Assembly: GCA_963840165.1 (NCBI GenBank) | Contig: CAWIXT010000006.1 | Location: 310,244-374,243 of the forward strand | Direction: 5' to 3' | DNA from: an uncultured Gemmatimonadales bacterium | Lineage (GTDB): Bacteria > Gemmatimonadota > Gemmatimonadetes > Gemmatimonadales > GWC2-71-9 | Length of the DNA: 64,000 nt | Shown here: positions 40 through 45,957 of the stretch, piece after piece | Layout: each line of letters starts with the position of its first letter | How positions within the stretch are numbered: position 1 is the stretch's first letter | Made by a program: the position numbers and the translations under genes | The notes under the pieces: generated by a model | What the model was told of the DNA's origin: nothing | What the model saw: the letters and a program-made list of their open reading frames with translations, nothing else | Database searches by the model: none

Positions 40-1666
40 TCATCCGGCCGCGACAACGCGCAGCCGCGGGGTGCGCGCGGCGCGCCCCTGCGCGCTCGGG
101 CCGCGCGCCAGACCAGCTCTACCTGCGTATCGAACGCCTTCTGAAACAGCGTCGACTTGCGCGTCCGCATCGGCCAATTCGACGTCGGGTGAGGAGGCCG
201 CCTCGAGGCTGAGCTGCAGCTGGCCTCGGACGAGTCGCACCTTGACCCCGGTCACCGACTGCGCGTGGGTTCGGTCGAGACCATCGGCGATCCGGAGGAT
301 GCCGCTCAGCCGCGCGATCAGCCTCCGCTCCTCCGACGAGGCGCGGGCGAGGTTCTCGTGCGACTTCTTCGGAAACGCCCGCCGGTGATATCGGGCCACA
401 TTGGCGATCAGCTCGACCTCGTGGGGCGAGAAGCCCGGCAGCTCGCCGTGCATGATCAGGTGATAGGCATGCTTGTGGTGCTTGGAGTGACTGATCAGGT
501 AGCCGATGTCGTGCAGGAGGGCCGCAGCCTGCAGCACGTCGCGGCTGTCCGCCGGCAACTCGAAGCGGTCCTTGAGGCCGTCGAAGATCTGGAGCGCCAG
601 GGTGGCCACCTGCTCGCAGTGACGCTCGTTGGACCGGCACTTGCGCGCCAGACGGCGGACCCACTCCATCCGATTGCCCGGCAGTGGGAATCTGGGCCAC
701 CGGCCGACGCCCGGGCAGACTCGGAGATCATCTGCAGCAGCAGGCCGTCGCGGATGCCGCGTTCGTTCACCAGGATCTGCTGGGTTCCCAGCCGCCTCAC
801 CAGGCGGCTGATGACGCGTGGCGCCCGGCCACGATGATGTCGGCCCGGTCCGCGCTCAGCCCCGGCATCTGGCGGCGGGCCTCCAGCGGCGCTTCCCGGA
901 GCCGGTCCAGCAGGTGGATGATCTCGGCAGGCGTCAGCACGTAGCCCTGCACCGATCCGTGCCGGCCCTCGCGCTGCCACTTCGACATGTGGGCCAGGGC
1001 GGTGAAGGTTCCCGCCGCTGCCGACCATGATCTCGGCCCGGTGCGCCGGCTGCCGGATGGTCGCCCGGAGCCTGCGGTCGATCTCCTGCCTTCATCTGCT
1101 TCCAGTGCTTGTCGCGGAGCGGATCGGACCGGACGAAGCGCTCGGTGACCCTGACCGCGCCCAGCGGAAGCGAGTAGACCTGATCGATGGCGGTTCCGGC
1201 CGAGAGGATGACCTCGACGCTGCCGCCGCCGATGTCCACCACCGCGGTGGAGCGGCCCTCGAGATCGAAGTGCCGGGCGGCGCTGCGGAAGGCCAGCTGG
1301 GCCTCCTCGTCACCGGAGATGACATCGATGCGAAGCTTATGCTGCCGCAGGACTTCCCGGGTGAAGGCCCGCCCGTTGGCCGCCTCCCGGACCGCGCTCG
1401 TGGCGATCGCCCGGATGCTCGGTGACTTTGAAGCCGTCGGCGATCGCCTTCATCTTCCCGATGGCGGCGAGCGCCCGCTCCACCGCCTCATCCGACAGCC
1501 GGCCGGTCCGGTCCAGATGCTCGCCCAGCCGCACCATCTCCCGCTCTTCGTCCAGGATCCGGTAGGTGTCATCGTCCTGGACCTCGGCGACGATCAGCCG
1601 GATGGTGTTGGTGCCGACGTCGATGGCGGCAAGCCGGGGCTGTGCCGAGGGCAGCGGACTAGTCAT
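40..1666 (-). pseudogene. ppx: Exopolyphosphatase / pppGpp phosphohydrolase, long Ppx/GppA form with HD domain; interrupted by at least 5 frameshifts; 3' end uncertain
   Basis: One protein is spread over minus-strand ORFs 1337..1714, 934..1242, 495..1028, 797..988 and 40..669. The N-terminus has AIDVGTNTIRLIV, the middle VVDIGGGSVEV, and the C-terminal HD region LLHDIGYLISHSKHHKHAY. The ATG at 1666 gives [18 protein letters not shown]. Shift points were read at about 1415, 1088, 1008, 830 and 690, with a possible further one near 165. Confidence 0.8.
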
Positions 1667-1794
1667 GGGCTTCCGATAGATATCTACCAAGAAGCGCTCC
1701 GCCGCCAGCCGCAATCGTCACGAAACGGTAACGATTGGGCAGGCGGGCAAGGGTCCTGTGATGCGGTTGGCTCCCCCTAATCCAGGTCTCCGTA

Positions 1795-27199: not shown

Positions 27200-27559
27200 A
27201 TGGCCACCTCGGCTGCAGATCTGTTGCTCGCGGTTGCGGAGCCCACCCGGCTGCGCATCCTGAACTGCCTGGCGGCAGCGCCTCTGTTCGTCTCCGACCT
27301 TCAAGCCGTGCTCGACCTGCCCCAGCCCACGGTATCCCGCCATTTGCAGGTGCTCCGCCGGGCCGACCTGGTGCGGGATACGCCGATTGCCCAGTTCGTG
27401 CTGTACCGCTTGCGGCGAAACGGAGGAGCCCACGGACGAATGCTGGCCGCCATCCTCGATGCCGTCGTCCATGACGATGGCGTGCTCCGCGCCGAGCGGC
27501 ACCGCGCCGCCGATCGGAGCCGGTCCCATACCCGAAGCCGAGTCCAGGAGCCCGCATGA
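27200..27559 (+). CDS. ArsR/SmtB-family transcriptional regulator
   Basis: LAVAEPTRLRILNCL...VSDLQAVLDLPQPTVSRHLQVLRRADLV winged-helix signature. The stop overlaps the next start (ATGA). Confidence 0.8.
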   Translation: MATSAADLLLAVAEPTRLRILNCLAAAPLFVSDLQAVLDLPQPTVSRHLQVLRRADLVRDTPIAQFVLYRLRRNGGAHGRMLAAILDAVVHDDGVLRAERHRAADRSRSHTRSRVQEPA

Positions 27560-28263
27560 CGCATCGGATTCTCGTAGTCGACGACGAGCCCGACATCACG
27601 GCCCTGGTGGCGTATCACCTGGCAAAGTCAGGGCTACGCGTCTCGACCGCCGCGAACGGGACGGATGCCCTCAAGGCGGCCCGGGAGGAGCGACCCGATA
27701 TCGTCATCCTCGATCTGATGCTGCCAGGTGTATCGGGCTACGATATCCTGGCCGAGTTGCGCAAACGGGAGGAAACCCGCGATGTCGGCGTCATTCTCCT
27801 GACCGCGCGGCGGGAGGAGACCGACCGAATTCGAGGTCTCTCCCTGGGGGCGGACGACTACCTCACCAAGCCGTTCTCGCCGCAAGAGCTGTCGCTTCGG
27901 GTGAGCGGTTTGCTGCGACGGCTGGGCAGCCCTGCCGTCAGTGCGGGGTCAACCCTGAGCGCCGGTCCGATCGTGATCGATCGGTCGGCTCACCGGGCCA
28001 CCATTCACGGGCAGGAGCTGAGCCTGACGGCGACCGAGTACAAACTCCTGCTCACGCTGGTCGAGCGCCGGGGGAGGGTGCAATCGCGGCCCCAGCTGCT
28101 CGAGATCGTCTGGGAAGCGCAGCCCGACATCCAGACCCGTACCGTGGACATGCATGTGCAGCGGCTCCGGACCAAGCTGGGTGACGCCGGGAAACTGATC
28201 GAGACGGTGCGGGGATTCGGCTACCGCTTCAAGGGGAATGAGCGCGGGGCCCGGGCCCGGTGA
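27556..28263 (+). CDS. phoB: OmpR/PhoB-family response regulator
   Basis: ILVVDDEPDI, the phospho-acceptor context DIVILDLMLPG, and KPF. The C-terminal winged helix has LTATEYKLLLTLV...VDMHVQRLRTKL. The symbol is inferred from family plus pst neighbourhood. Confidence 0.75.
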   Translation: MTHRILVVDDEPDITALVAYHLAKSGLRVSTAANGTDALKAAREERPDIVILDLMLPGVSGYDILAELRKREETRDVGVILLTARREETDRIRGLSLGADDYLTKPFSPQELSLRVSGLLRRLGSPAVSAGSTLSAGPIVIDRSAHRATIHGQELSLTATEYKLLLTLVERRGRVQSRPQLLEIVWEAQPDIQTRTVDMHVQRLRTKLGDAGKLIETVRGFGYRFKGNERGARAR

Positions 28264-30014
28264 CATTTGTCCGCCGATTGGTCCTGGGCTCGGTCCTCAT
28301 ACTGACCCTGGCTGTCGCCATCCTGCTCTGGGTCGCCGAACGGTCGCTCCGGCGAGATCTCGAAGGCGAGATCGCGCACACGCTGGAGAACGAGGCCAAG
28401 CTGGTTCGCGAGGCCCTCCGCCCGGACTCCACGGCCTGGCAAGCCGCCGTCATCCAATTGGCCCGCCAGGTCGGGCATCGGATCACCCTCGTCGACCGCG
28501 AAGGCCGGGTCCGGGCCGACAGCGACTTCCCCGCCGGACCGCTCCCCGCCATCGAGAGCCACGCCCAGCGCCCTGAGGTGGTCGTCGCTCTGAGGGGAGG
28601 CCGGGGCGTGGCAAGTCGGCGCAGCGACACCGTGGGGCAGCCGTTTCTCTACGTGGCGATACCAGGGGGGCCGGGCGTGGTGCGGGTCGCCGCGGGGCTG
28701 GAGCAGGTGGACGAGGTGGTCCGCCGGGCCCAGAGCGCCGTCGCCGGTGCCGCGTTACTGGCGCTGCTGGTCGGAAGCCTGCTGGCGCTGGCCGCAGGAA
28801 GGTCCATCGCGCAACCGCTCATCCAGATCAGCGCCGCCGCCCGGGCCATCGCGGCCGGCGCTCCGCCGCGATTTCCCCGATCCGGTATTCCCGACATTGA
28901 CGGGCTGGTACAGGCGCTGCGGCAGATGCACCGGCAGCTGGGTGACCGCTTCGAGGATCTCCGGCGGGAGCAGGCCGAAACGGCCGCTTTGGTGGAATCG
29001 ATGGTCGAAGGGGTCATCGCCGCGGACGGGCGGGGCCGCATCATCACGGCCAACGTGGCGGCGCGCCGGCTGCTCGGCTACAGCCTTACGGAGGAGCTGC
29101 CCGACCTACCGGAGCTCTTCCGGGTGAAGGCCGCCCGGCAGGTCGTGGACGCCGTCCTCCAGGGGCAAGCGGTGCAGGACCGGGAGCTGGAAGTGGATGA
29201 GCGCGCCATCCTGATGAACGCCAGGCCGCTCCCCTCGGGTGGCGCGGTGCTGGTGATCCACGATCTGACAGAGATCCGGCGGCTGGAAACAGTGCGGCGC
29301 GACTTCGTGGCCAATGTGTCCCACGAGCTCAAGACCCCGCTGACCTCGATCTCCGGCTATGCCGAGACGCTGCTGACCGACGCGCCCGATCCGGACACGA
29401 CCCGCCGCTTCCTGGGTACCATCCTGGAGAACGCCCGCCGGATGCAGCGGCTGGTAGACGATCTGCTGGATCTCGCACGGATCGAGGTTGGTCGCTGGCA
29501 GCCGGAGCCTGAGCCGACTGACGTGGCTGAAACGGCCCGGGAGATGTGGAGTGAGCTGGCCGAGCGGGCCGCGGCACGGGGCGTCGAGTTCACCGTGGAG
29601 ACGGAGCCGGCCGCGGGCAACCTCCATGCGGACGCCGACGCATTGCGCCAGATCCTGACCAATCTGCTGGAGAATTCACTCCGGCACACCGGCCGGGGCG
29701 GACGCATTGTCTGTCGAAGCCGGCTGGAAAACGGCGGAGTGGCGGTGAGCGTCTCAGATAATGGCTCGGGGATTCCCCATGAGCATCTGCCGCGGATCTT
29801 CGAGCGATTCTATCGAGCCGATCAGTCTCGCTCACGGGACGAGGGGGGCACAGGCCTGGGCCTGGCTATCGTGAAGCACCTGGTCGAGGCGCACGGCGGC
29901 AGGGTCTATGCAGAAAGTGAGCGGGGGGTAGGAACCACGGTCACCTGCTGGTTCCCTGCATCGAGCGCCACGCCCAGCGATCCTCTGGTGGAGGCCTCGC
30001 AGACCTCCCGATAG
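28260..30014 (+). CDS. phoR: Sensor histidine kinase, PhoR-like (2 TM, periplasmic domain, HAMP, PAS, HisKA, HATPase)
   Basis: H-box SHELKTPLTSISGY, N-box LLENSLRH, and G-boxes DNGSGIP and GTGLGLAIVKH. The GTG start overlaps the phoB stop. Confidence 0.75.
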   Translation: MTFVRRLVLGSVLILTLAVAILLWVAERSLRRDLEGEIAHTLENEAKLVREALRPDSTAWQAAVIQLARQVGHRITLVDREGRVRADSDFPAGPLPAIESHAQRPEVVVALRGGRGVASRRSDTVGQPFLYVAIPGGPGVVRVAAGLEQVDEVVRRAQSAVAGAALLALLVGSLLALAAGRSIAQPLIQISAAARAIAAGAPPRFPRSGIPDIDGLVQALRQMHRQLGDRFEDLRREQAETAALVESMVEGVIAADGRGRIITANVAARRLLGYSLTEELPDLPELFRVKAARQVVDAVLQGQAVQDRELEVDERAILMNARPLPSGGAVLVIHDLTEIRRLETVRRDFVANVSHELKTPLTSISGYAETLLTDAPDPDTTRRFLGTILENARRMQRLVDDLLDLARIEVGRWQPEPEPTDVAETAREMWSELAERAAARGVEFTVETEPAAGNLHADADALRQILTNLLENSLRHTGRGGRIVCRSRLENGGVAVSVSDNGSGIPHEHLPRIFERFYRADQSRSRDEGGTGLGLAIVKHLVEAHGGRVYAESERGVGTTVTCWFPASSATPSDPLVEASQTSR

Positions 30015-31153
30015 CTCAGGTCCAGACGGTCCAACTCGCGGTCCCACGTGAGCCCCTCGGCCGTGCGGCGAGCCCCTCGAGAAAGCCGCTCGGTGAGACT
30101 CCAATCCTCAGCCAGTTTCACCATTGCTGCTGCCATTGCCCCAATGTCCCCTTCGGGGCAGGCAAGACCGTTCTTGCCATTGCGAAGATGATCCCGCACC
30201 CCGCCCGCCGGGCTCGCAATCACGGGGAGGCCGCTCGCCATAGCTTCCAGGACCACAAGCCCCAGGGTTTCCGTTACGGAGGCGAAGACGAACGCGTCAC
30301 AGTTCGCGTAGAGATCGGGCAGCCGGCTTTTCCGCTCCAGGAATCCCAGGAAGGTGACTCCGGGCGGAGCAGCGGCCCGGAGTTCGGCTTCGCGGGGGCC
30401 CGTGCCCGCCATGATCAGGTGGATGACACCTCGCGGCAGGCTTTCGCAGGCCAGTCTAAACGCGTGAATGACCTGGTCGGCCCGCTTCTCGGCGGCCAGC
30501 CTGCCGACATACAGGAACGTGAAGCGGCTCCCTATGCCGAAGGCGGCACGCATCTCCTGAGAGCGCCGCCCCGGATGGAACAGCTCCGCATCCACACCGC
30601 GTCCCCACACCTCGGCGTCAGAAACATTCAGCCGAACCAGATCATCCCGCGAGGCGGTTGACGGAGTGTAGACCCGGCGGCTCCGCCGATGGAACCGACC
30701 CAGGTACGACGACACGGCTCCCCGAAGCCAGGATGTTCCGTACGCGACGGCGTAGCGCGCGAAGTCGGTGTGATACGACGACACCATCGGGACTCCCGCG
30801 CGGGCCGCGGCGATCTGACCCATCCGGCCCACTCCGAATTCGGTGGCACAATGAATCAGGTCGGGCCGAAATTGTCGAACCAGCGCGGTCAGGGCGCGGG
30901 AAGAGGGCAAGGCCAACCGCACTTCGGGGTAGAGCGGCAGCGGTACGCTGGAAATGGAGACCAGCTCGACAGGAAGGCTCCCCGCCCCCTCCGCGCCATC
31001 CCAGTCCGAGGCTCCTGAGGCTGCCGGATATCGTGGCGCCACTACTAGGCAATCCCAATTGCGGCGTGCCAGTCCCCCCACCGATAGGGAGGTGACCACC
31101 GAGACCCCATTGAGCTGAGGTGGATATGTATCGGTGCAATAGAGAACCCGCAT
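29906..31153 (-). CDS. GT4-family glycosyltransferase
   Basis: The ATG at 31153 gives MRVLYCTDTYPPQLNGVS. The ExFG-type region is SVTETLGLVVLEAMASGLPVIAS. The 3' end overlaps the convergent phoR by about 108 nt. Confidence 0.8.
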   Translation of the reverse strand: MRVLYCTDTYPPQLNGVSVVTSLSVGGLARRNWDCLVVAPRYPAASGASDWDGAEGAGSLPVELVSISSVPLPLYPEVRLALPSSRALTALVRQFRPDLIHCATEFGVGRMGQIAAARAGVPMVSSYHTDFARYAVAYGTSWLRGAVSSYLGRFHRRSRRVYTPSTASRDDLVRLNVSDAEVWGRGVDAELFHPGRRSQEMRAAFGIGSRFTFLYVGRLAAEKRADQVIHAFRLACESLPRGVIHLIMAGTGPREAELRAAAPPGVTFLGFLERKSRLPDLYANCDAFVFASVTETLGLVVLEAMASGLPVIASPAGGVRDHLRNGKNGLACPEGDIGAMAAAMVKLAEDWSLTERLSRGARRTAEGLTWDRELDRLDLSYREVCEASTRGSLGVALDAGNQQVTVVPTPRSLSA

Positions 31154-31192
31154 CGAGACTCCCGGAGTGGACGTCCCAAGCTGCCCCCGGGA

Positions 31193-31209
31193 CGTCACGG
31201 TTTGGTCAA
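31193..31209 (-). promoter_or_regulatory. Candidate Pho box (two 11-bp-phased units) upstream of the GT4 gene
   Basis: The minus strand reads TTGACCaaaccGTGACG, 40-56 nt upstream of the GT4 ATG. It matches the unit and spacer pattern seen at 40792 and 37234. Confidence 0.35.
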
Positions 31210-31326
31210 ATGTGAGTCTCGATTGGTACCGGGATGCCCGGCGGGTCGAGCGATCCGGTGTTCGTTACCGATTCGTCGCGCGCCTGCGGCCATTCGGTTG
31301 CGAGTTGTGGAGAGATTTGTGGATAC

Positions 31327-31863
31327 ATGGAAACATCGATCCTGGTCCGAATCAGCGCCCGGGACAGAGTTCTTATGGCCCGGTACGCCATTGCGCCCAC
31401 CGCGCCGCAACCCTTGCGCGCGGTATGGACCGCGATCACCCACCTCGGTGGCACCGGTCCTACGCTTCTGGCGGCAGGCCTGCCATGGTTCGCGTGCTGC
31501 GCCTTGCACCACGCCTCGCGACTCGCCCTGGCAACGCTGGTACTCTCACATCTCGTGGTGCAGCTCGTGAAACGGACGGTGGGCCGGGGCCGGCCCGCGA
31601 GGTGCGACTGCGTCGCTCTGGTGCGGGAGCCGGACCGATTTTCGTTTCCTTCCGGACATTCGACCGCTGCCATGGCCGTCGCGCTTTCGTATGGCGCCGT
31701 GTTCCCGGCCTGGGCCCTTCCACTGGTGATCGTCGCCGTCGTGGTTGGATTCTCCCGGATCCGCCTGGGGGTGCACTATCCCAGCGATGTTCTCGTCGGC
31801 CAGCTCATTGCAGCGGCCACAGCTGGTGCGGTGTCGCTGTTCCCTTGGCTCAGCCCACCGTGA
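31327..31863 (+). CDS. PAP2-family phosphatase (phosphatidic acid / lipid phosphate phosphatase type)
   Basis: All three PAP2 motifs are present: KRTVGRGRP, PSGHS and SRIRLGVHYPSDV. The protein is polytopic. The ATG at 31327 is preferred over the longer ORF start at 31234. Confidence 0.85.
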   Translation: METSILVRISARDRVLMARYAIAPTAPQPLRAVWTAITHLGGTGPTLLAAGLPWFACCALHHASRLALATLVLSHLVVQLVKRTVGRGRPARCDCVALVREPDRFSFPSGHSTAAMAVALSYGAVFPAWALPLVIVAVVVGFSRIRLGVHYPSDVLVGQLIAAATAGAVSLFPWLSPP

Positions 31864-31882: not shown

Positions 31883-32479
31883 CTACAGCTTGTTGGCATA
31901 GCTGAGAACCTTGTACCGCCCTCCCCGCTCCAGGATCTGAGTCAGCAGCCGAACCGAGATCGCCTTACCCCCCTGATCCCGCAGATGGAGAACGCAGGGG
32001 CCCGCCACTGTGTTCTTACCCTCGCGGCTCGCTTCCGGGCCGCAGTCGTGGCCCAGAAGCTCGAGACGCTGCCCGCCGTAGACGGCAAGCGCCCGGCGAA
32101 TCCCCCGCTCGCTGCGTTGTTGGAGCAGGTACCACATCAGACCTGGTTCCAGATCATAGGGAGGAAGACCTTGCGCCGCGGTGGGGTAGTACAAATAGGC
32201 GAACTCGGCGCGGCTGACCGCCATCGAGGCGAGGGCGGCCGTGTCGCGCCGCGCCAGTGCGGCAACGTACGCGGCCACCAGCGAGTCACGACTGCCATAC
32301 CCGCTTTCAAGCCGGGTGACCGGCTCCAGCCCTTTTCGAAAGCGCTGAATCGACGAGTCCCGGGGAATGAAACTGTCGACTACCCGCGCGGCGGCTGTGG
32401 TGCTGCGGCCCTCACCGTTCTCGCAGCCGGCCAGGATGCCGGCCCCGATTACAAGCACTGCCCTTAATAACATCGGCAT
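31883..32479 (-). CDS. Hypothetical lipoprotein
   Basis: MPMLLRAVLVIGAGILAGC lipobox. Intact 198-aa ORF and last gene of the TonB-receptor operon. I recognised no family. Confidence 0.5.
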   Translation of the reverse strand: MPMLLRAVLVIGAGILAGCENGEGRSTTAAARVVDSFIPRDSSIQRFRKGLEPVTRLESGYGSRDSLVAAYVAALARRDTAALASMAVSRAEFAYLYYPTAAQGLPPYDLEPGLMWYLLQQRSERGIRRALAVYGGQRLELLGHDCGPEASREGKNTVAGPCVLHLRDQGGKAISVRLLTQILERGGRYKVLSYANKL

Positions 32480-32543
32480 GGAGTTCCCGGCGTCGAGACC
32501 AGGATAGAGAGATGCAACTCCCTATCCTGGACCCCCGATGTCG

Positions 32544-34220
32544 TTAGTTCGTGGCGTAGTTGGTCCAACCCTGCCACCACTTGGCTCCCGCTGGATCCGC
32601 CGCGCCGAAATAGGTGGTGTTCGTCAAGGTCCCACCGAAAAAGCCGGCAGTGTATTCCGGAGGAATCACGACAGTTCCGGCTCCGGATGCCGCCGCCGAC
32701 CCTGCCGCCGGCGTCCAGTCCAGCGAGGCCGGGATCAGGCTGGTAAAGAGCGACGCCGCGGTTCCGCCCGAGACGACGTGGTTGGACGTCGCGAAAGCAC
32801 CCGCCTTGCCGAAGTTGGTGCCGGCGTCCTCGTCGTAATTCAACGCATTTTCCGCGAGCAGCAGGTTGGAGATGTTCAGCGAGTCGGCCGTCATGAGGGC
32901 GTCGGTCTCCGCATCTCTCACCGACAGACCCTGGCGCTGCCAGCGGGCCACGATGCCGTTGGTCAGGTAGCCGCCAGTTCCTCGGCGGAGCACCATCCCC
33001 ACGTCCCCACCGCTGGTGAGCGGTGTCGCGGTACCGGGGCCGACCAGTGTGAAGTTGGCAAAGACCGGGACCGAGAACGGCTGGGTAGCAAAGCCCAGAG
33101 CGCAGCCGGCACCGTTACAGCCGTCAGCCTCGAAACCCTGAGGATCGCTCGCGGGGACCCCGGCACTAGGCGCTGGGTCCGGCCGCGCGGACTGGAAGCC
33201 TATAAGGAACTGGTTCTGGCCCCGATAGCCTTCGGTCCAGTCGAAGTGGTCGTCGCCCGATTCATAGGAGACCAGGTAGCGCCCATCGACCGCGCCGCCC
33301 CACCACTCAAAGGAGTCGTCGAGGCCGGCCAGCGACTGAACGTACTCCAGTGTGGTTCCTGAACCGACAGCGTACATCGACAGGCTGTTGAGCTCCTGCC
33401 CGCTGCCCGCCGAGACGTCATAGCCGGCAAACTCGATCCGGACGTAGCGCAGCGTGCCGCTGTTGTCAGCGTTATCGGTCCCGCCCGAGTAATCCTCGGT
33501 GAACCCCTGGGGCCCCTCGGTAAGCACCGGCGGGGTGCGGTTGATGATGCCGTTACCGATGATGAGGAGCCCTCCCCAATCCCCTGGAGCGCGGGATCCA
33601 GCCGGCCTGCCCGACGTAAACACGATGGGCGCCTCGGCCGTGCCTTGAGCGTCGATCGAGGAGCCACGCAGAATCCACAGGGAGCTTCCCGCCTCTTCCG
33701 GATCGCCGACGATGGTGGTGCCCGGTTGAATCGTGAGGGTGGCCGCGTTGCCCACTTTCACGTAGCCGTTCAAGGTGTACAACGTGTCGGCATACAAGGT
33801 GCGGTCGGCCGAGATGTTGCCTGTCAGCGTCGCGACTTTCGCCCCGGCCACGGATGTGTTCACGGCCGAGCTGAACGTACCGGTCCCGTTGGCGTTCACG
33901 GCCGCCACCCGGTAACTGTAGGAGGCACCGGGGGTCACCGCCGCGTCGGTGTAGCTGGTCCCCGTGATCGTCCCACCGACCGCGGTAAAGGTGCCGGGAG
34001 CCGATGACTCAGCGCGCTCGAGTACATAACTCGTCGCGCCGCTGACGGCGGTCCAGGCAACCTCGACGGACGTCTCCCCTGCCGTGGCAGTCAAGCCGGT
34101 AGGTGCCGGCGGAGTCGCCGGCGGTTCTGTCAGGTCGTCATCGCCGCAGCCGGCCAGGAAGCCGGTCAGAAGCACTGCTGCTGCGGCAGCGCGAAGCGAG
34201 CGGGTGGAGAGCAACATCAC
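32544..34220 (-). CDS. Lipoprotein with an N-terminal fibronectin type III domain and a beta-helix-like body, partner of the adjacent TonB-dependent receptor
   Basis: LLTGFLAGC lipobox. Fn3 signature APTGLTATAGETSVEVAWTAVSGATSYVLER...YSYRVAAVN. The remainder is Gly/Thr/Asn-rich. It lies immediately downstream of the receptor gene. Confidence 0.6.
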   Translation of the reverse strand: MMLLSTRSLRAAAAAVLLTGFLAGCGDDDLTEPPATPPAPTGLTATAGETSVEVAWTAVSGATSYVLERAESSAPGTFTAVGGTITGTSYTDAAVTPGASYSYRVAAVNANGTGTFSSAVNTSVAGAKVATLTGNISADRTLYADTLYTLNGYVKVGNAATLTIQPGTTIVGDPEEAGSSLWILRGSSIDAQGTAEAPIVFTSGRPAGSRAPGDWGGLLIIGNGIINRTPPVLTEGPQGFTEDYSGGTDNADNSGTLRYVRIEFAGYDVSAGSGQELNSLSMYAVGSGTTLEYVQSLAGLDDSFEWWGGAVDGRYLVSYESGDDHFDWTEGYRGQNQFLIGFQSARPDPAPSAGVPASDPQGFEADGCNGAGCALGFATQPFSVPVFANFTLVGPGTATPLTSGGDVGMVLRRGTGGYLTNGIVARWQRQGLSVRDAETDALMTADSLNISNLLLAENALNYDEDAGTNFGKAGAFATSNHVVSGGTAASLFTSLIPASLDWTPAAGSAAASGAGTVVIPPEYTAGFFGGTLTNTTYFGAADPAGAKWWQGWTNYATN

Positions 34221-34326
34221 GTGGCCTCGAGTCAGAAGGGTTCCATAAAGTCGGGGTTACTGCCAGTCCGCGAATCAATGGTTTGCGTACCACCGATCGA
34301 GCACGGAAACGTCACGATCGGGTCAC

Positions 34327-37083
34327 TCACGGCTGCCAGCTCGCACCCAGGGAGAAGACCCGGCCGATCTTGTAGCGGCTCCGCAGAATTCCGCCCTGGG
34401 TGGCCCGGTACGGCGTGTCCAGCAGGTTTCTGGCTTCCAGCTTGAACGTGGTGTGCGCGAATACCGGCACCTGGAGAGAGAAGTCCACGATATGGCGGGC
34501 CTCCTCATAGGTGTCGGGGAATGGTTGAGCGCCCGCCTCCAGGATGCGCGGGCCCACCACGTTGTAGAGCGCAGTCCCGGTCACCCCTCCCGCGCTGGCG
34601 AAGGTCACCCCGCCGTTTACCACATACTCGGCCTGACCCACCATGGGACGGTCCGCGTTGGTCAGCACCGCCGTGCCCGGGGTAATCGTGCTGCGCATGA
34701 GTGTGGTGTTGGCAAAGATGGTGAACGGCACCAGACTGGGACTGAGGAAATCCAGGTTCTTCCTGACCTCCAGCTCGACCCCGTAGTTCTCCGCCTTCTC
34801 CGCATTGACGAAGCTGTTGGCCAGGGCGCCGGTCTGCACCACGAAGACCCGCTCGATGGGATCGTCGAATCGTTTGGCGAACACCGCCAGGCTCAGGACC
34901 TCCCCCGGACGGGGATACCACTCCCAGCGCAGATCGTAGTTCTGAATCAGGGCTCGCTGGAGATCAGGGTTGCCGAAGGTGATGAGTCCGCCGATCGGCT
35001 CGAAGGAGCTGACATCGGCGATCTCACGGTACTCCGGCCGGGAGAGCGTCTGGCTCGCCGAGGCCCTGAGCACCTGGTCGTCGGTCAGCTGGTAGTTCAG
35101 CGCAAGCGAGGGCAGGATGTCGGTGTTCTCGCGGGAAGTGGCGGACGGCTCCCCTTGAGGGCTCAGGGTATTGAGGTCCAGGGTCCACCGCTCCAGCCTC
35201 GCTCCCCCGATGAGTCGCAGGCGCGAGGTCACCGGCAGCTCCACCAGGGCGTATCCCGCCGCGAGACGGTCCCGGGCGTCGTAACGGCCGCCATTGGCGT
35301 TGATGAAGAGAGAAAGCCTGCTGTCCTGGGCGTAGGGCCCGGCAAAAATCTGTTCGGGCACGACCTGGCGGTCCGCCAGTGAGAGAGCCCGATTGGTAAT
35401 GTCGAACGCCCGGCTGTCGACATCCCGGTCCACCGCTCTGAATGCCGCACCGGTCTTGATCATGGCAGGGCTCGATGTCGAGCCGAGGATCAGGCGGTAA
35501 TTAGCGGCCCCGTCATAGCTGCTCTCATCGAGCTCGCTGAAGGTCCGGGTAGCGGATTGCGCGCCGCCCCACCAATCCAGCGGAACCGACGTGCCGGTGA
35601 CTGGATCGATGCTGGTCCGATACGCGATGTCAGAGCGGTCCGGCTCGTTACGGCTGACGTGGGATCCAGTGAACGACCAGTCCACGACATGGCTCGAGCC
35701 GAGCAGATGCTCGCCTGCGAGTTGATGGGAGCGCACGGTCCGCTGGACGAACGTCAGACGGGTGACATCGAGATCGACGTTGAACTCCTCGTTCTCGCCT
35801 GCAAGCCGGACGGCCTCGTTGTCAGCGCTTCGGTTATACGTGTTATTGAAGGAGAGCTTGCTGTTGGCGCCAAGCCGGGTACTGAGATTCGCGATTCCGC
35901 CCCACAGCACGTTGTTCCGGGAGGTTGAACCGGCACTCTCGTTATAAGGGCGGAATCCGGCGCTGCTGCTTTGGATCAGGGCACGAGACTCCTCCAGCCG
36001 CGCTTCCTGTCCGTACGAGTAGGTGAAAGAACCGATGTACCCGATCGGCTGGTTGAAGACCGGGTCTTCGCCTCCAATACTGACGCCGAAGCTGGCGTTG
36101 CCGGTGCCGGTTCCTGGCTGCGCGGACCAGGCATTCCTAAAGGAGCTGATGATGTTGTTGACGTCGGTCTGGCTGGCGCCGCTCAGATCGCCTGCGGCCA
36201 CCGCTGGAGCGGGGATTTGACGCGCGTCGCCCGGCATGCCGCGCCACTCACTGCCGGTGGTCGGCGCCCGATAGAGATCCTTGCCGCTGGCAGCCGTGTT
36301 GAGGCCGGCCATGGCCGAGAAGTTGATGACCCGCCCGGCCGGAAACTCCCGGGTCTTGAGGTTGACGGAGGCGCCGGAGAAGTCACCGGGCTGATCCGGA
36401 GTGAACGTCTTTGAGGTGGTGATTCCTTCCAGGAGGCTGGAGGGGAAGATGTCCAGCGGCACCACCTTCCGCTCTGGCTCCGGACTCGGGACTCGAACGC
36501 CGTTGAGCGAGGTAGTGGTGTATCGCTCTCCCAGGCCCCGAACGAACACATACTTGCCGTCCTGGACGGTGACGCCACTCACCCGCTGGACCGCCTGGCC
36601 CGCGTCGCTGTCCGGACTCTTCTCGATCTGTTCGCTGGTGACGGAGCTGACGATGTTGGTGGCGTTTCGCTGCTCATCCAGCGCCCGGTTGACTGTTCCC
36701 CGTTCTGCCTCGGCGCTCACTTCGATCTCCGCCAGCTGAACGGCGGACGCAGATAGCGCGATATCCTGTACCGCGGTCCCTCCCGCGGGAACCACGACGC
36801 CGGTGACCACCTTCGGCGCAAAGCCGATCATGCGCACCCGGATCGCCACCGGACCGGCGGGTACCGGATTGAGCGCGTATCGTCCGTCCAGCGCCGAGGT
36901 GGTGATGAGGTTGGATTCCACGACCTCGATTTGGGCCCCGGCTACCGGAGCTCCTTGCTCCGCGTCGACGACCCGGCCTACCACTCGCCCGACATCCTGC
37001 GCGACGAGGGGCTGGCTGGCGAAACCGGGGCCGAGCAGGAGACTTGCAAGAGCAACACGTTGCAACAGAGGGGGAGTGGGCAT
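34327..37083 (-). CDS. TonB-dependent outer-membrane receptor with an N-terminal carboxypeptidase-regulatory-like domain
   Basis: The N-terminal GRVVDAEQGAPVAGAQIEV...DGRYAL...IRVRMIGF fold is followed by a plug (IVSSVTSEQIEKSPDSDAGQAVQRVSGV) and a long beta-barrel. The barrel ends in the ...RVFSLGASWQP terminal strand. Confidence 0.9.
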   Translation of the reverse strand: MPTPPLLQRVALASLLLGPGFASQPLVAQDVGRVVGRVVDAEQGAPVAGAQIEVVESNLITTSALDGRYALNPVPAGPVAIRVRMIGFAPKVVTGVVVPAGGTAVQDIALSASAVQLAEIEVSAEAERGTVNRALDEQRNATNIVSSVTSEQIEKSPDSDAGQAVQRVSGVTVQDGKYVFVRGLGERYTTTSLNGVRVPSPEPERKVVPLDIFPSSLLEGITTSKTFTPDQPGDFSGASVNLKTREFPAGRVINFSAMAGLNTAASGKDLYRAPTTGSEWRGMPGDARQIPAPAVAAGDLSGASQTDVNNIISSFRNAWSAQPGTGTGNASFGVSIGGEDPVFNQPIGYIGSFTYSYGQEARLEESRALIQSSSAGFRPYNESAGSTSRNNVLWGGIANLSTRLGANSKLSFNNTYNRSADNEAVRLAGENEEFNVDLDVTRLTFVQRTVRSHQLAGEHLLGSSHVVDWSFTGSHVSRNEPDRSDIAYRTSIDPVTGTSVPLDWWGGAQSATRTFSELDESSYDGAANYRLILGSTSSPAMIKTGAAFRAVDRDVDSRAFDITNRALSLADRQVVPEQIFAGPYAQDSRLSLFINANGGRYDARDRLAAGYALVELPVTSRLRLIGGARLERWTLDLNTLSPQGEPSATSRENTDILPSLALNYQLTDDQVLRASASQTLSRPEYREIADVSSFEPIGGLITFGNPDLQRALIQNYDLRWEWYPRPGEVLSLAVFAKRFDDPIERVFVVQTGALANSFVNAEKAENYGVELEVRKNLDFLSPSLVPFTIFANTTLMRSTITPGTAVLTNADRPMVGQAEYVVNGGVTFASAGGVTGTALYNVVGPRILEAGAQPFPDTYEEARHIVDFSLQVPVFAHTTFKLEARNLLDTPYRATQGGILRSRYKIGRVFSLGASWQP

Positions 37084-37175
37084 GGGCCTTCCGTCACGGG
37101 GGATCGAGGCAGCTCAGGCAGGCTGCCAGGTGTCTGCCGGTACGGAGGGATCCTGCGCGAAACCGGTCGCGGCGG

Positions 37176-37203
37176 CACAACGATTGTGCAACGGAACGGT
37201 CAC
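37176..37203 (-). promoter_or_regulatory. Candidate degenerate Pho box upstream of the TonB receptor gene
   Basis: The minus strand reads GTGACCgttccGTTGCAcaatcGTTGTG: three GT-initiated hexamers at exact 11-bp phasing, 93-120 nt upstream of the ATG at 37083. The second and third units are imperfect. Confidence 0.3.
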
Positions 37204-37233
37204 GGGGCACTTCCGGGGGGCACACCTACGCCT

Positions 37234-37261: not shown

Positions 37262-37349
37262 GAAAAGCTTATGCTCCGTGACCTGATTTCAGCTTCTTAG
37301 CACCCGTGTTGGACGGCACCGTCTTCCACCACCATCCCGAAAGGGGCCT

Positions 37350-42680: not shown

Positions 42681-43509
42681 ATCCGCGGTGAGCAAAGCGC
42701 TTCCAGTTTCCGCCGGCGCCATACCGCCGGCTCCCGTGGCCCCTCCGGGGGCCCAGCCCAAGATGGCCACCGACAAGCTCACTGCCATGTATGGCAAGTT
42801 CACGGCGGTGAAGGGAGTGTCGCTCGGCTTTGCGCCCAATCAGGTGCACGCCCTGATCGGACCTTCCGGCTGCGGCAAGTCCACCTTCCTGCGCACCCTC
42901 AACCGGATGCACGAGCTTTCGGACAACGGCTGGATTACCGGCCGGGTCCTGCTCGAGGGCGAGGACATCTATGCGCCGAGGGTGAATGCCATGCAGCTGC
43001 GCCGCCGGGTCGGGATGGTCTTCCAGCGTCCCACACCGTTCCCCACCATGTCGGTGTACGACAACGTCGCGGCCGGGCTCCGGGTGAACCGCAGCCTCCC
43101 TCGCTCCGAGCTCGATAGCGTGGTGGAGCGTTCGCTGCGCCAGGCCGCTCTCTGGGAAGAGGTCAAGGACCGGCTCAAGGCCAGTGCCATGGCGCTTTCG
43201 GGCGGCCAGCAGCAGCGGCTCTGTATCGCCCGAACCATTGCGCCGTCGCCGGACGTGGTCCTCCTGGACGAGCCTACGGCCTCGCTCGATCCCCAGGGCA
43301 CCCAGCGGATCGAGGAGCTGCTGTTCGACCTGAAGCGGCACTTCACGATCGTCATCGTCACCCACAACATGCAGCAGGCCGCCCGGGTGTCCGACACCAC
43401 GACGTTTTTCTACCTCGGCACCATGGTCGAGACCGGCCGTACCCGGCAGATCTTCACGGCGCCACGGAACGAGCAGACCGAGGCCTACATCACGGGAAGG
43501 TTCGGATGA
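42673..43509 (+). CDS. pstB: Phosphate ABC transporter ATP-binding protein PstB (intact copy)
   Basis: Walker [10 protein letters not shown], signature [13 protein letters not shown], Walker [12 protein letters not shown], and C-terminal EAYITGRFG. Confidence 0.9.
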
Positions 43510-44354
43510 GCACTACCATGACTCCCAGGCCCTTCGTCACTGCACCGCAGGTAACGCTGGCCCCGCGCCAGCCGGTGGCCCCACTCGGTTCCAGAGGAGC
43601 CCCAGCGGTGGACGTGCGGGACTTCAGCTTCTTCTACGGGCCCCGTCAGGCGCTCGAAGAATCTGACCTTCGCCATCGAGCGCCGGGCGGTCACCGCGAT
43701 CATCGGCCCCTCGGGGTGCGGCAAGTCCACCTTCCTCCGCTCCATCAACCGGTTGAACGACCTCATCCCAGGCGTCCGCCACCGCGGGGATATCCTGGTC
43801 GAGGGCACCTCCGTCTTCGGTTCCGGGACCGATCTGGTCTCGCTGCGCCAGCGGGTGGGCATGGTGTTTCAGCGGCCCGAACCCGTTTCCCAAGTCGGTC
43901 TTCGACAACGTGGCATACGGGCCGGCACTCAACGCCCTGGTCACGCGGCGCGACCTGCCCGATCTGGTCGAGCGCTGCCTGCGTCAGGCCGCGCTGTGGG
44001 ATGAAGTGAAAGACCGGCTCGAGGAGCTCGGCACCGGCCTGTCCGGAGGGCAGCAGCAGCGGCTCTGCATCGCCCGGGCGCTGGGCAATCAGCCCGAGGT
44101 GCTGCTGATGGACGAGCCCTGCTCGGCACTCGACCCCATCGCCACTCAGAAGGTGGAGGAGCTGATCTTCGATCTGAAGCAGCACTACACCATCGTGATC
44201 GTAACCCACAACATGCAGCAGGCCGCGCGGGTCTCGGACTACACCGGCTTCTTCGACCGCGGGCGAGCTCATCGAGTTCGACGAGACCGAGCGGCTCTTC
44301 ACCAAGCCGCAGCACGAGCGGACCGAAGCGTACATCACCGGGAGATTCGGATGA
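43506..44354 (+). pseudogene. pstB: Second PstB ATP-binding protein; three +1 insertions
   Basis: The protein reads correctly only by shifting at about 43650, about 43880 and about 44258. The recovered sequence is FYGPRQAL / [25 protein letters not shown]...VGMVFQRP / [14 protein letters not shown]...[13 protein letters not shown]...DYTGFFDR / [30 protein letters not shown]. The three insertions total 3 nt, so the stop is back in the original frame. Confidence 0.85.
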
Positions 44355-45061
44355 GCCTCGACGTCCATCGCCACTTTCACGATGAGCTGAGCCACGTCAA
44401 GGTCCGGCTGCTGACCATGTCGGGCGAGGCGGAAGCCGCGCTCGGGCTGGCAGTAGAGGCGCTGCTGGAGCGGGACAGCGAGAAGGCCCAGCGGGTCATC
44501 GCCGGCGACCGGGTGATCGACGCCATGGAAGTCGAGATCGAGGAGCAGAGCATCAATCTCCTGGCGTTGCAGCAGCCGATGGCCCGGGACCTCCGGATGC
44601 TCACATCGGCGCTCAAGATCGCCAACGATCTCGAGCGGGTGGGAGACCACGCGGTCAACATCGCGCAGTCCGCCGAGCGGCTGAACCAGGCCCGTCCCAT
44701 CGCGCCAGAGCCCGAGATCGTGGACATGGCCCGGCTGGCGCGGGAGATGCTCTCCGATGCGCTCGAGGCCTTCATCCGGGGAGACGCCGAAGCGGGGCGC
44801 GAAGTCTGCCGCAGGGACGACAAGGTGGATGCGCTGCATCGGTCGGTATTCCGGATTTTGCTGACCCACATGATGGAGGATCCCCACACCATCGGCTCCG
44901 GTATGGAGCTGTTTCTGGTGAGCCGCAACCTCGAACGGGTGGCCGACCTGGCTACGAACATCGGCGAAGACGTGGTGTTCCTGGTGGAGGGCCGCTCAAT
45001 CAAGCACCACTCCGAGGATCGGGGCGAAGCCCGCAAGGATCCGGCACCGACCAGGAAGTGA
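44351..45061 (+). CDS. phoU: Phosphate signalling complex protein PhoU
   Basis: The ATG at 44351 overlaps the pstB2 stop (ATGA). Both PhoU repeats are present, with [15 protein letters not shown] and [16 protein letters not shown]. Confidence 0.9.
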
Positions 45062-45957
45062 AGCGGCCCGCCGAGCGCCTGGCGGCAATCGACGTGGGCT
45101 CCAACACCGTCCTCCTGACGGTGGCCGATTTCGACCGGGATACCGGCCTGACCGTCGTCGAGGAGGCCGAAGACCAGCCCCGCCTCGGCTCAGGAATCGC
45201 CGGGGGCCGCCTGAGTGAGGCCTCCATGGCGCGGGCCCTCCTCTCCCTGACCCGCATGAGAGACACATGTCGGCGCCTGGGCGTGCAGCGAACGGCGGCC
45301 GCAGCTACCGCCGCCGTGAGAGAAGCCGAAAATGGGCCCGACTTCGTGGAGCGGGTTCGGGCGCTCGACATCCCGCTCCGCATCATCTCCTCCGACATCG
45401 AGGCGGCACTCTCCTACCGCTCGGCAGCCTATCGCTTCCCCGGCGATGAGCCCACGCTCGTCGCCGACATCGGTGGCGGCAGCCTGGAGCTGATCAGCTC
45501 GAGTGGGGGGCGCGCGCTGCGGTCCGACTCCTTGCCGCTGGGAGCAGTGAGGCTGACTGAGCTCGGGACCTCGGGCGAGCAGCTACACGCGCACATCCGA
45601 GGCGTCCTCAGCCGAGCGATGGTGCCCGAATGGCGGCACTCGAGAATCATCGGGTCGGGAGGAACCTTTGCGACCCTGGCGGCCATGGTGCTCGCCGGTC
45701 GGAAGTCCAGCACCCACCCCGTCCACGGCACGACCATTCGGGCGGGAGAGGTGACGCAGCTGCTGGATACCTTGTCGGGCCTCACGCCGGAGCAGAGGCG
45801 TCAGACGCCGGGACTCAAGCCGGAGCGGGCCGACATTATCGTGGCGGGTATTGCTGTGGTCGCCGAGCTGCTGGTAATGGCCGAGGCGGGAGGCGTTACG
45901 GTCAGCGGGTTCGGCTTGAGAGACGGGCTACTGCTCGAGATGGCCGGAATGCAATAG
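45058..45957 (+). CDS. ppx: Short Ppx/GppA-family phosphatase (ASKHA domains only, no HD domain)
   Basis: [16 protein letters not shown] and [11 protein letters not shown]. It is 299 aa. The GTG start overlaps the phoU stop. Confidence 0.8.

Follow-up and report, generated by a model that had tools for sequence, protein, structure and literature searches.

Bacteria that run short of phosphate swap phospholipids for glycolipids, a major route of survival which in pathogens also alters antibiotic sensitivity, and the known bacterial route needs the phospholipase PlcP. Can a different lipid phosphoesterase stand in the place of PlcP? The question is raised by two neighbouring genes in a 64,000-nt stretch of DNA (hereafter the window) from an uncultured Gemmatimonadales bacterium (assembly GCA_963840165.1, contig CAWIXT010000006.1). 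One encodes a glycosyltransferase of family GT4 and the other a membrane phosphatase of the PAP2 family, and the two are divergently transcribed next to phoB and phoR. Our analysis suggests that the pair resembles the PlcP-Agt module with PAP2 in place of PlcP, the GT4 being by its sequence a family-level member of the Agt clade. On balance we find it probable that the two genes form a lipid-renovation module under PhoBR control, in which PAP2 supplies diacylglycerol, the GT4 glycosylates it and phospholipid is replaced. This reading builds on the site of the pair in a Pho island, on conserved Pho boxes, on the Agt-clade GT4, on gene fusions, on the interchangeable partners of related GT4 genes and on the pairing of GT4 with PAP2 in three phyla.

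The DNA of the window is rich in GC (about 66%), and wherever a close orthologue of either protein has an organism label, that organism is an uncultured member of the Gemmatimonadales. A first-pass annotation of the same DNA had described a divergent GT4/PAP2 pair adjoining phoBR, and both open reading frames are indeed present at its coordinates. These were the two longest open reading frames; the true starts were set as follows.

29906 to 31153, minus strand: retaining GT4 glycosyltransferase of 415 amino acids, predicted to be an Agt-like lipid glycosyltransferase (Pfam, motif, structural model, homologue identities; start from orthologue alignment).
31327 to 31863, plus strand: PAP2 membrane lipid phosphate phosphatase of 178 amino acids with seven predicted helices (PF01569, motifs, structural model).

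Orthologue alignment puts the GT4 start at 31153 (MRVLYCTDTYPPQLNGVS..., 415 amino acids), and orthologue alignments together with an identical 178-residue database protein put the PAP2 start at 31327 (METSILV..., 178 amino acids). The two genes diverge from a spacer of 173 bp (31154-31326).

At their 3' ends GT4 and phoR overlap convergently on opposite strands by 109 bp (29906-30014), and by coordinates the overlap is similar in orthologues (e.g. about 94 bp in L002). The GT4 tail within the overlap (residues about 392-415, ~25 residues) is predicted to be disordered, and its apparent conservation may merely mirror the HATPase domain of phoR on the other strand. Through the overlap, regulator and target could also interfere with each other's transcription. 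Third-position GC is lower in GT4 and PAP2 (0.72-0.74) than in the flanking Pho genes (0.80-0.82), which may mean that the pair is expressed at a different level or has an evolutionary origin of its own.

The glycosyltransferase has the domains, motif and fold of the retaining GT-B enzymes of CAZy family GT4. It matches Glyco_transf_4 with 101 bits (cut-off 28.5) and Glycos_transf_1 with 119.8 bits (cut-off 26.4) in Pfam, carries the motif E295-x7-E303, both glutamates of which are invariant in 37 sequences, and its AlphaFold2 model (confidence score pLDDT 83.8) is a GT-B fold of two Rossmann domains. The closest folds found with Foldseek in the PDB, MshA and BshA (template modelling score, TM, 0.74-0.76) and PglA, are generic GT4 enzymes that do not discriminate between functions. 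Among curated NCBIfam models the best is GpgS, the N-acetylglucosamine (GlcNAc)-phosphatidylglycerol synthase (NF053787), with 161 bits against a cut-off of 480. The same model gives 135 bits to the Pseudomonas aeruginosa protein Agt2, 134 to an MgtA-like protein and 405 to a genuine GpgS-like protein of Ralstonia; since the diacylglycerol-specific Agt2 reaches 135, the match of the window GT4 is one of family level only.

Annotated relatives were collected by a translated search of plasmid and chromid records. The window GT4 is homologous over its full length to a characterised Agt, namely Agt2 (PA0842; 34% identity over residues 1-385 of 415, i.e. 93%, E 3e-63, 199 bits). The PA0842 gene lies directly after plcH-plcR (L059) and was identified as Agt2 by that synteny and by PMC8528852, in which the enzyme was shown experimentally to make glucuronosyl-diacylglycerol (GADG) from diacylglycerol and UDP-glucuronic acid, to be induced by phosphate (Pi) limitation and to have a Pho box. 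According to the same source, Agt2 and the Agt of Phaeobacter are 35% identical, about the distance between the window GT4 and Agt2. The further relatives are a PAP2-linked protein of Ralstonia (R. wenshanensis; 38% identity, 228 bits; 48% identical to Agt2), a PAP2-linked protein of Bacillus (B. mycoides; 34%, 221 bits), an MgtA-like protein of Tsukamurella (31%, 154 bits) and a PlcP-linked Agt of Thiodictyon (34%, 135 bits). The gene of the last diverges from one for an LpxH-like metallophosphoesterase, as is classic for PlcP-Agt, and that of Tsukamurella lies between menD and a menaquinone methyltransferase gene, which we take to be the site of mycobacterial mgtA.

Every GT4 relative whose function can be inferred acts on lipids (Agt2, PlcP-linked Agt, MgtA-like, GpgS family). 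The grouping with cell-wall or exopolysaccharide transferases that would have spoken against a lipid role was thus not found. A neighbour-joining tree of 130 members of the clade is star-like and gives no orthology. Because of the annotated relatives, the pairwise scores and the fusions to lipid enzymes described below, we place the window GT4 in the membrane-lipid-glycosylating branch of GT4 and not with the enzymes of cell wall or exopolysaccharide. For its donor sugar glucuronic acid is a good guess, as GT4 relatives are linked, by fusion or adjacency, to UDP-glucose dehydrogenase (P0325, L071, L095). The automatic database names of the two proteins and their kin ('phosphatidylinositol alpha-1,6-mannosyltransferase', 'cell wall biosynthesis', 'undecaprenyl-diphosphatase') are inconsistent and were given no weight.

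The phosphatase had been described as carrying all three catalytic motifs of its family, and they are intact: K82-x6-R89-P90, P108-S-G-H111 and S143-R-x5-H150-x3-D154, with catalytic residues invariant in 36 orthologues. The protein scores 66.9 bits against PF01569 (cut-off 27.2), and its AlphaFold2 model (pLDDT 83.5) has seven helices. In motifs (KxxxxxxRP, PSGH, SRxxxxxHxxxD), domain and polytopic helical fold it is a PAP2 protein, with a charged N-terminal helix. Its best fold matches by Foldseek are PgpB of B. subtilis (TM 0.68) and LpxE of Aquifex (TM 0.64). Among solved structures its best sequence match is the Aquifex LpxE (E 9e-11), followed by the PgpB proteins of B. subtilis and E. 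coli. It stays well below the NCBIfam cut-offs for undecaprenyl-diphosphate phosphatases (SepP NF047884, 56.8 against 250; NF008813, 40.3 against 229) and for PgpB (NF007975, 30.6 against 261). The PAP2 proteins paired with GT4 in Bacillus (176 amino acids) and Ralstonia (178 amino acids) are 34-35% identical to it and are its best full-length matches in the plasmid collection. Other plasmid PAP2 proteins match in the catalytic core only, come from unrelated contexts (DedA, diacylglycerol kinase, lone genes) and were set aside. Both GT4 and PAP2 look catalytically competent by their residues.

Are the two genes under phosphate control? A Pho-box matrix of 18 nt was trained only on sites in the promoters of the porin, TonB-receptor, pstC and fn3-lipoprotein genes of the window and was run over both window strands (127,966 positions). 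In parallel, 31 orthologous GT4-PAP2 spacers were aligned for phylogenetic footprinting. These two approaches were adopted because a plain IUPAC consensus count across the window, taken alone, is not significant (12 against 7.6 expected). The elements concerned are the following.

31194 to 31221, minus strand: Pho box toward GT4, GAGAC-N6-TTGAC-N6-GTGAC, three direct repeats at 11 bp, ending 40 nt 5' of the GT4 ATG.
31178 to 31183, minus strand: candidate -10-like element CAGCTT from the spacer alignment, about 8-11 nt past the GT4 Pho box, its function putative.
31262 to 31279, plus strand: Pho box toward PAP2, TCGTTAC-CGAT-TCGTCGC, 47 nt 5' of the PAP2 ATG.
27556 to 28263, plus strand: phoB, and
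28260 to 30014, plus strand: phoR, the presumed regulators of both boxes, which PhoB would bind.

Both matrix matches are on the correct strand for their gene. The GT4-directed site (31194-31211, minus strand) scores 14.9, rank 9 overall and 4th among positions outside the training set; the PAP2-directed site (31262-31279, plus strand) scores 16.4, rank 7 overall and 2nd among these positions. The best of them all outside the training set (1717-1734, score 20.4) lies directly upstream of a frameshifted ppx/gppA gene at the left end of the window and serves as an independent sanity check of the matrix. A match of at least 10, for which the background rate is 2.25e-4 per position, is found toward GT4 in 23 of the 31 orthologous spacers and toward PAP2 in 24; most of those toward GT4 keep a constant distance of 38-46 nt to the ATG. 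The spacers are poorly conserved except for discrete blocks: toward GT4 the block CGAGAC-N6-TTCAC-N6-GTGAC, with CAGCTT about 10 nt on, and toward PAP2 the block GTTAC-N6-GT(G/A/C)GC. The same 11-bp-spaced GTKAC repeats are the conserved blocks of the spacer between receptor and porin, and they stand in tandem threes ahead of pstC and ahead of the lipoprotein gene. CAGCTT recurs after the last repeat of the porin/pstS Pho box (37290-37295), where it is conserved across genomes, and may be a -10-like element of PhoB-dependent promoters in Gemmatimonadota.

In a sister lineage (L070 and L074), whose GT4 and PAP2 share 61-62% and 44-47% identity with those of the window, the divergent pair stands away from phoBR and nevertheless keeps GTGAC-N6-TTCAC-N6-GTCAC 25-50 nt upstream of GT4. 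In silico, the window sites have at least two 7-bp direct repeats at the 11-bp periodicity of PhoB-regulon promoters, in the place of the -35 region, and share them with the pst promoter of the same genome. The Pho-box-like sequences proposed earlier for both genes have therefore held up: by an independent matrix they are above chance, and in orthologous spacers they are conserved. Because of the matrix ranks, the conservation in 31 spacers and the box retained by the relocated pair, it is well supported in silico that both genes belong to the PhoB regulon, and we infer PhoB binding and induction from it. We know of no published Pho-box model for Gemmatimonadota.

The setting of the pair goes beyond mere adjacency to phoBR, for it lies mid-way in a Pho island of roughly 25 kb (about 20.4 to 46 kb). 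Thirty Gemmatimonadales genomes, counted at species level, retain the order 5'-nucleotidase, arsR-phoBR, GT4, PAP2, (receptor operon), porin, with GT4 identity as low as 61%. The island layout also recurs on two more metagenomic contigs, on one of which PAP2 is followed directly by porin-pstSSCAB-phoU. The best family match of phoB is PhoB (TIGR02154, 244 bits) and the best matches of phoR are PnpS/PhoR (328/297 bits), all under the curated NCBIfam cut-offs; the assignment of both genes is supported, despite these scores, by the nearby pstSSCAB-phoU-ppx.

With what kind of gene does a GT4 of this clade usually travel? When a genome collection was scanned with the GT4 sequence alone, 30 close orthologues from Gemmatimonadales came back; most of the other hits were paralogues of 27-35% identity from other phyla. 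Many of these paralogues lie beside further GT4 genes and none has a PAP2 neighbour; they are uninformative on the pair. An exhaustive search of 1.8 billion cluster representatives found GT4 relatives of 33-40% identity fused to a zinc-dependent phospholipase C (Zn-PLC), in three separate clusters, and others fused to a PlsC-type acyltransferase, a GDSL lipase or a UDP-glucose dehydrogenase domain. The neighbourhoods of eight further GT4 relatives were inspected, of which six were informative and two repeat the Pho-island layout of the window. Desulfotomaculum arcticum has Zn-PLC and then GT4; elsewhere GT4 is followed by an LpxH-like metallophosphoesterase, or is divergent from a PHP phosphoesterase, or stands between PAP2 and a UDP-glucose dehydrogenase gene with ppx nearby. 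In the sister lineage (L070 5164-9122, L074 5189-9206) the GT4 orthologue is divergent from an operon of an NPP-type phosphodiesterase (PF01663), PAP2 and a second GT4, which suggests a two-step headgroup removal, by cleavage of the phospholipase D (PLD) kind and then a phosphatase, and a diglycosyl lipid product.

Small profiles were run on 80 metagenomic GT4 loci, sampled blind, to identify the gene beside GT4. PAP2 only was found in 7 loci, NPP plus PAP2 in 2, a PlcP-like gene in 6, PlcP-like plus PAP2 in 2 (L104 and L110) and Zn-PLC in 2. All 19 partner-bearing loci score above about 230 bits on the clade profile, and no GT4 of lower score has such a neighbour. In Ralstonia GT4 precedes its 178-residue PAP2 and the genes overlap; in Bacillus mycoides the 176-residue PAP2 precedes GT4. 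In many of the neighbourhoods inspected, a lipid phosphoesterase accompanies the Agt-like GT4. PlcP, PlcH and Zn-PLC, as partner types, all yield diacylglycerol, and to judge from these neighbourhoods the small PAP2 subfamily is one interchangeable partner of the GT4 in at least three phyla.

Two of these loci deserve a remark of their own. On the Ralstonia wenshanensis megaplasmid (L060 6001-9730) the GT4-PAP2 operon lies tail-to-tail with a glycosyltransferase gene close to GpgS (405 bits) and a DUF2334 gene, a domain which we presume to be the COG3233 of GpgD; with rpoN and a sigma-54 activator nearby, the locus looks like a compact island for remodelling membrane-lipid headgroups. On the Bacillus mycoides plasmid (L061 4360-4410) the hexamers TTTACA, TTATTA, TCAATA and TTATTA stand at 11-bp spacing 5' of the PAP2-GT4 operon; they resemble a Bacillus PhoP box, weakly so in DNA that is AT-rich.

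Taken as a module, the pair would work as follows. Pi limitation would act through PhoR, and phospho-PhoB on the two back-to-back boxes would switch on both divergent genes. PAP2 would turn phosphatidic acid, or else a glycerolipid monoester close to it, into diacylglycerol and free Pi, probably at the periplasmic face by homology with PgpB and LpxE, so that Pi would be released beside the co-induced porin and PstS; dephosphorylation of phosphatidic acid is the one route by which a PAP2 enzyme makes diacylglycerol. The diacylglycerol would flip across the membrane, and the GT4, a peripheral cytoplasmic protein, would transfer a hexose or hexuronic acid to it from a UDP-sugar, its presumed donor. 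The product would be a phosphorus-free glycosyl-diacylglycerol in place of phospholipid, and PAP2 would hold the position that PlcP, Zn-PLC or PlcH has in other bacteria.

Several points weigh against this scheme. Phosphatidic acid, the substrate that we assume for PAP2, cannot be read from sequence, and the nearest curated or solved relatives of the protein act on undecaprenyl diphosphate (C55-PP), phosphatidylglycerol phosphate (PGP) and lipid A, all with scores far under the family cut-offs. As a monoesterase, PAP2 cannot degrade existing phosphatidylethanolamine (PE) or phosphatidylglycerol (PG) as PlcP does. It would therefore have to divert newly made phosphatidic acid or need a PLD-like step upstream, which the NPP phosphodiesterase of the sister lineage may be. 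PlcP-like and PAP2 genes occur together at L104 and L110, and the sister lineage has that phosphodiesterase in addition. A simple substitution is hence doubtful, and PAP2 may be a complementary step. PhoB and PhoR score below the curated equivalog cut-offs, the star-like tree does not make the window GT4 an orthologue of Agt2, and cultured Gemmatimonadota have been reported with PE, PG, diphosphatidylglycerol and an aminolipid and no glycolipid, in rich media only. Of the first-pass proposal, the candidate phosphate-sparing lipid-remodelling module is supported in part, by the Agt-like GT4, the Pho boxes, the Pho island and the recurrent GT4-PAP2 pairing; in relatives PAP2 does stand in the genome where others have PlcP, Zn-PLC or PlcH, and it is the plain replacement of PlcP that the loci L104 and L110 and the NPP-bearing lineage speak against.

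Could the two enzymes be co-regulated without acting in sequence? The GT4 would then use other diacylglycerol, and PAP2 would dephosphorylate another envelope lipid (undecaprenyl diphosphate, PGP, lyso-phosphatidic acid or lipid A 1-phosphate), for Pi scavenging or for a lower surface charge. We hold this to be unlikely. It agrees with the top NCBIfam matches of PAP2, which are undecaprenyl-diphosphate phosphatases and PgpB, with the order of its solved-structure matches (the Aquifex LpxE, E 9e-11 and of the same size, ahead of the B. subtilis and E. coli PgpB), with the co-occurrence of PlcP-like and PAP2 genes in L104 and L110 and with the JGI name undecaprenyl-diphosphatase, an automatic label without weight here. 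However, the family scores are far under their cut-offs (57 against 250, 40 against 229 and 31 against 261), and in Bacillus, an organism without lipid A, GT4 has a homologous PAP2 as its partner; since the pair occurs there too, lipid A 1-phosphatase was rejected as its conserved role. Moreover, the pairing is specific to the Agt-like clade, PAP2 stands where relatives have phospholipases that produce diacylglycerol, and the PAP2 proteins of other contexts (linked to DedA or diacylglycerol kinase) match in the catalytic core only.

A GT4 that glycosylates phosphatidylglycerol in the manner of GpgS, the GlcNAc-PG synthase, with PAP2 as the PGP phosphatase supplying it, would explain why GpgS is the top NCBIfam model of the GT4 (161 bits), why a PGP phosphatase heads the fold matches of PAP2 and why in Ralstonia the GT4-PAP2 pair adjoins a DUF2334 gene and one that is GpgS-like (405 bits). 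Yet 161 bits against a cut-off of 480 is little when Agt2 reaches 135 there; the Pfam scan of window genes turned up no homologue of gpgD or gpgF, and relatives have as partners phospholipases C, whose product is diacylglycerol and not PG. A glycosylated PG would also retain its phosphorus, a poor fit with Pho control, and this scenario appears very unlikely to us. An ordinary role in envelope polysaccharide, in which the GT4 would act on a polyprenyl-linked sugar or polysaccharide, PAP2 would recycle undecaprenyl diphosphate and the proximity to phoBR would be accidental, is the most improbable of all. Its support comes from the generic fold matches of the GT4 in the PDB (MshA, BshA, PglA) and from the automatic names 'glycosyltransferase involved in cell wall biosynthesis' and 'undecaprenyl-diphosphatase', which again carry no weight. 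Against it, no flippase, polymerase or further glycosyltransferase surrounds the pair, the GT4 paralogues of 27-30% identity in multi-glycosyltransferase clusters never have a PAP2 neighbour, the relatives of inferable function act on lipids while several others are fused to lipid-metabolising enzymes, and the conserved Pho boxes are kept even where the pair has moved.

How does the renovation module that we favour compare with known systems? The nearest is the PlcP-Agt pathway of Sinorhizobium, Agrobacterium, SAR11, Roseobacters and P. aeruginosa (PlcP/PA3219, Agt1/PA3218, Agt2/PA0842), which has a GT4 of the same clade. Both systems have Pho boxes in their promoters and a GT4 gene paired with a lipid phosphoesterase gene, and the product expected here would likewise be a phosphorus-free glycosyl-diacylglycerol. 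They differ in the partner, here a PAP2 monoesterase and there an LpxH-like metallophosphoesterase with phospholipase C activity. PAP2 would free Pi and not cleave PE or PG directly, whereas PlcP frees a phospho-headgroup. The genes of the window are divergent, whereas those of PlcP-Agt form one operon. The neighbour of the window GT4 is PAP2, and there is no metallophosphoesterase of PlcP type beside the pair, the sole Metallophos domain nearby being that of the 5'-nucleotidase.

By chemistry alone the scheme is also like that of plastids and cyanobacteria, where PAP2-type phosphatidic acid phosphatases (LPP gamma, epsilon) feed the glycolipid synthases SQD2 and MGD; plants under Pi starvation use a route of PLD plus phosphatidic acid phosphatase. 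There, as proposed here, PAP2 makes diacylglycerol from phosphatidic acid for a glycosyltransferase and the route is used more under Pi stress, but the plastid and cyanobacterial genes are neither paired nor under a bacterial PhoB box. Nakamura et al. 2007 is cited in PMC4796936, and PMC3586718 gives glucuronosyl-diacylglycerol as a product of SQD2. Bacterial PAP2 enzymes that turn phosphatidic acid into diacylglycerol are the subject of PMC3599759 and PMC8225852 (Lpp alpha and beta of Streptomyces coelicolor, Mycobacterium smegmatis, Rhodococcus). These triacylglycerol enzymes of actinomycetes are alike in activity alone; their diacylglycerol goes to storage lipid, and they have neither Pho control nor a GT4 partner.

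The small PAP2 proteins LpxE of Aquifex aeolicus (6ebu, about 180 amino acids), PgpB/YodM of B. subtilis (5jki) and PgpB of E. coli share fold, motifs and similar size with the window PAP2; on the other hand, they are only 20-26% identical to it in the Foldseek alignments, act on lipid A 1-phosphate, PGP and C55-PP, and have no Agt-like GT4 partner. GpgSDF of P. aeruginosa makes glucosaminyl-phosphatidylglycerol, GpgS producing GlcNAc-PG (PMC12713373). GpgS, the top-scoring curated family for the window GT4, also glycosylates a membrane glycerolipid, but the window pair has no deacetylase or flippase neighbour.

The remaining genes of the island complete the picture of the locus, and in order they are the following.

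Start of the island: purine nucleoside phosphorylase, CNT nucleoside transporter, adenosine deaminase, two-module 5'-nucleotidase.
Middle: arsR-phoB-phoR, GT4, PAP2, small hypothetical gene, fn3/beta-helix lipoprotein, TonB-dependent receptor.
End: phosphate porin O/P, two pstS, pstC, pstA, pstB, a second pstB remnant joined to phoU, ppx.
27200 to 27559: ArsR/SmtB-family regulator, its stop overlapping the phoB start (translational coupling to phoB-phoR).

The arsR gene sits upstream of phoB in all 30 related genomes, and the spacer between the 5'-nucleotidase and arsR holds no strong match to the Pho-box matrix. To our knowledge no role has been described for an ArsR-type protein in a pho operon. 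On the minus strand, 31883-37205 carries in series the TonB-dependent receptor, the fn3/beta-helix lipoprotein and a 198-residue hypothetical gene. As this set is missing from some relatives (L008, L025, L028, L075), we regard the genes between PAP2 and the porin as an optional insert. The receptor and the lipoprotein gene are each preceded by a high-scoring Pho box, at 37188-37205 and 34311-34328 respectively. The open reading frame 43485-45061 joins PhoU domains to a C-terminal piece of an ABC ATPase; since relatives such as L075 have two pstB genes ahead of phoU, the second pstB of the window is apparently frameshifted or fused. At the left end a Ppx/GppA-type gene (40-1734, minus strand) is split into at least four reading frames, being either a pseudogene or the result of long-read assembly errors, and a second, intact ppx lies at 45058-45957.

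A search of the full-text literature found no paper that links PAP2 to PlcP-Agt renovation, to the Pho regulon or to Pho-controlled synthesis of bacterial glycolipids, nor any paper on a PAP2-Agt pairing; in the literature searched, the suggestion that this variant is undescribed stands. More widely, and tentatively, as an idea that we rate as quite possible though a little short of probable, the small PAP2, alone or with an NPP-type phosphodiesterase, may be a widespread and undescribed arm of phosphate-stress lipid renovation in Gemmatimonadota, Betaproteobacteria and the Bacillus cereus group, feeding diacylglycerol to Agt-like glycosyltransferases and freeing orthophosphate at the outer face of the cytoplasmic membrane. 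For plcP mutants of P. aeruginosa an unidentified PlcP-independent supply of diacylglycerol has been noted experimentally (PMC8528852); PAP2 could be this supply and, if our reading is true, would be a candidate for it. Our analysis also yields a Pho-box model for Gemmatimonadota. If the reading is true, the GT4-PAP2 pair would be a marker for phosphorus stress in soil metagenomes and metatranscriptomes, and the PAP2-Agt module would extend lipid renovation to the abundant and barely cultured Gemmatimonadales of soil, to Ralstonia and to Bacillus.

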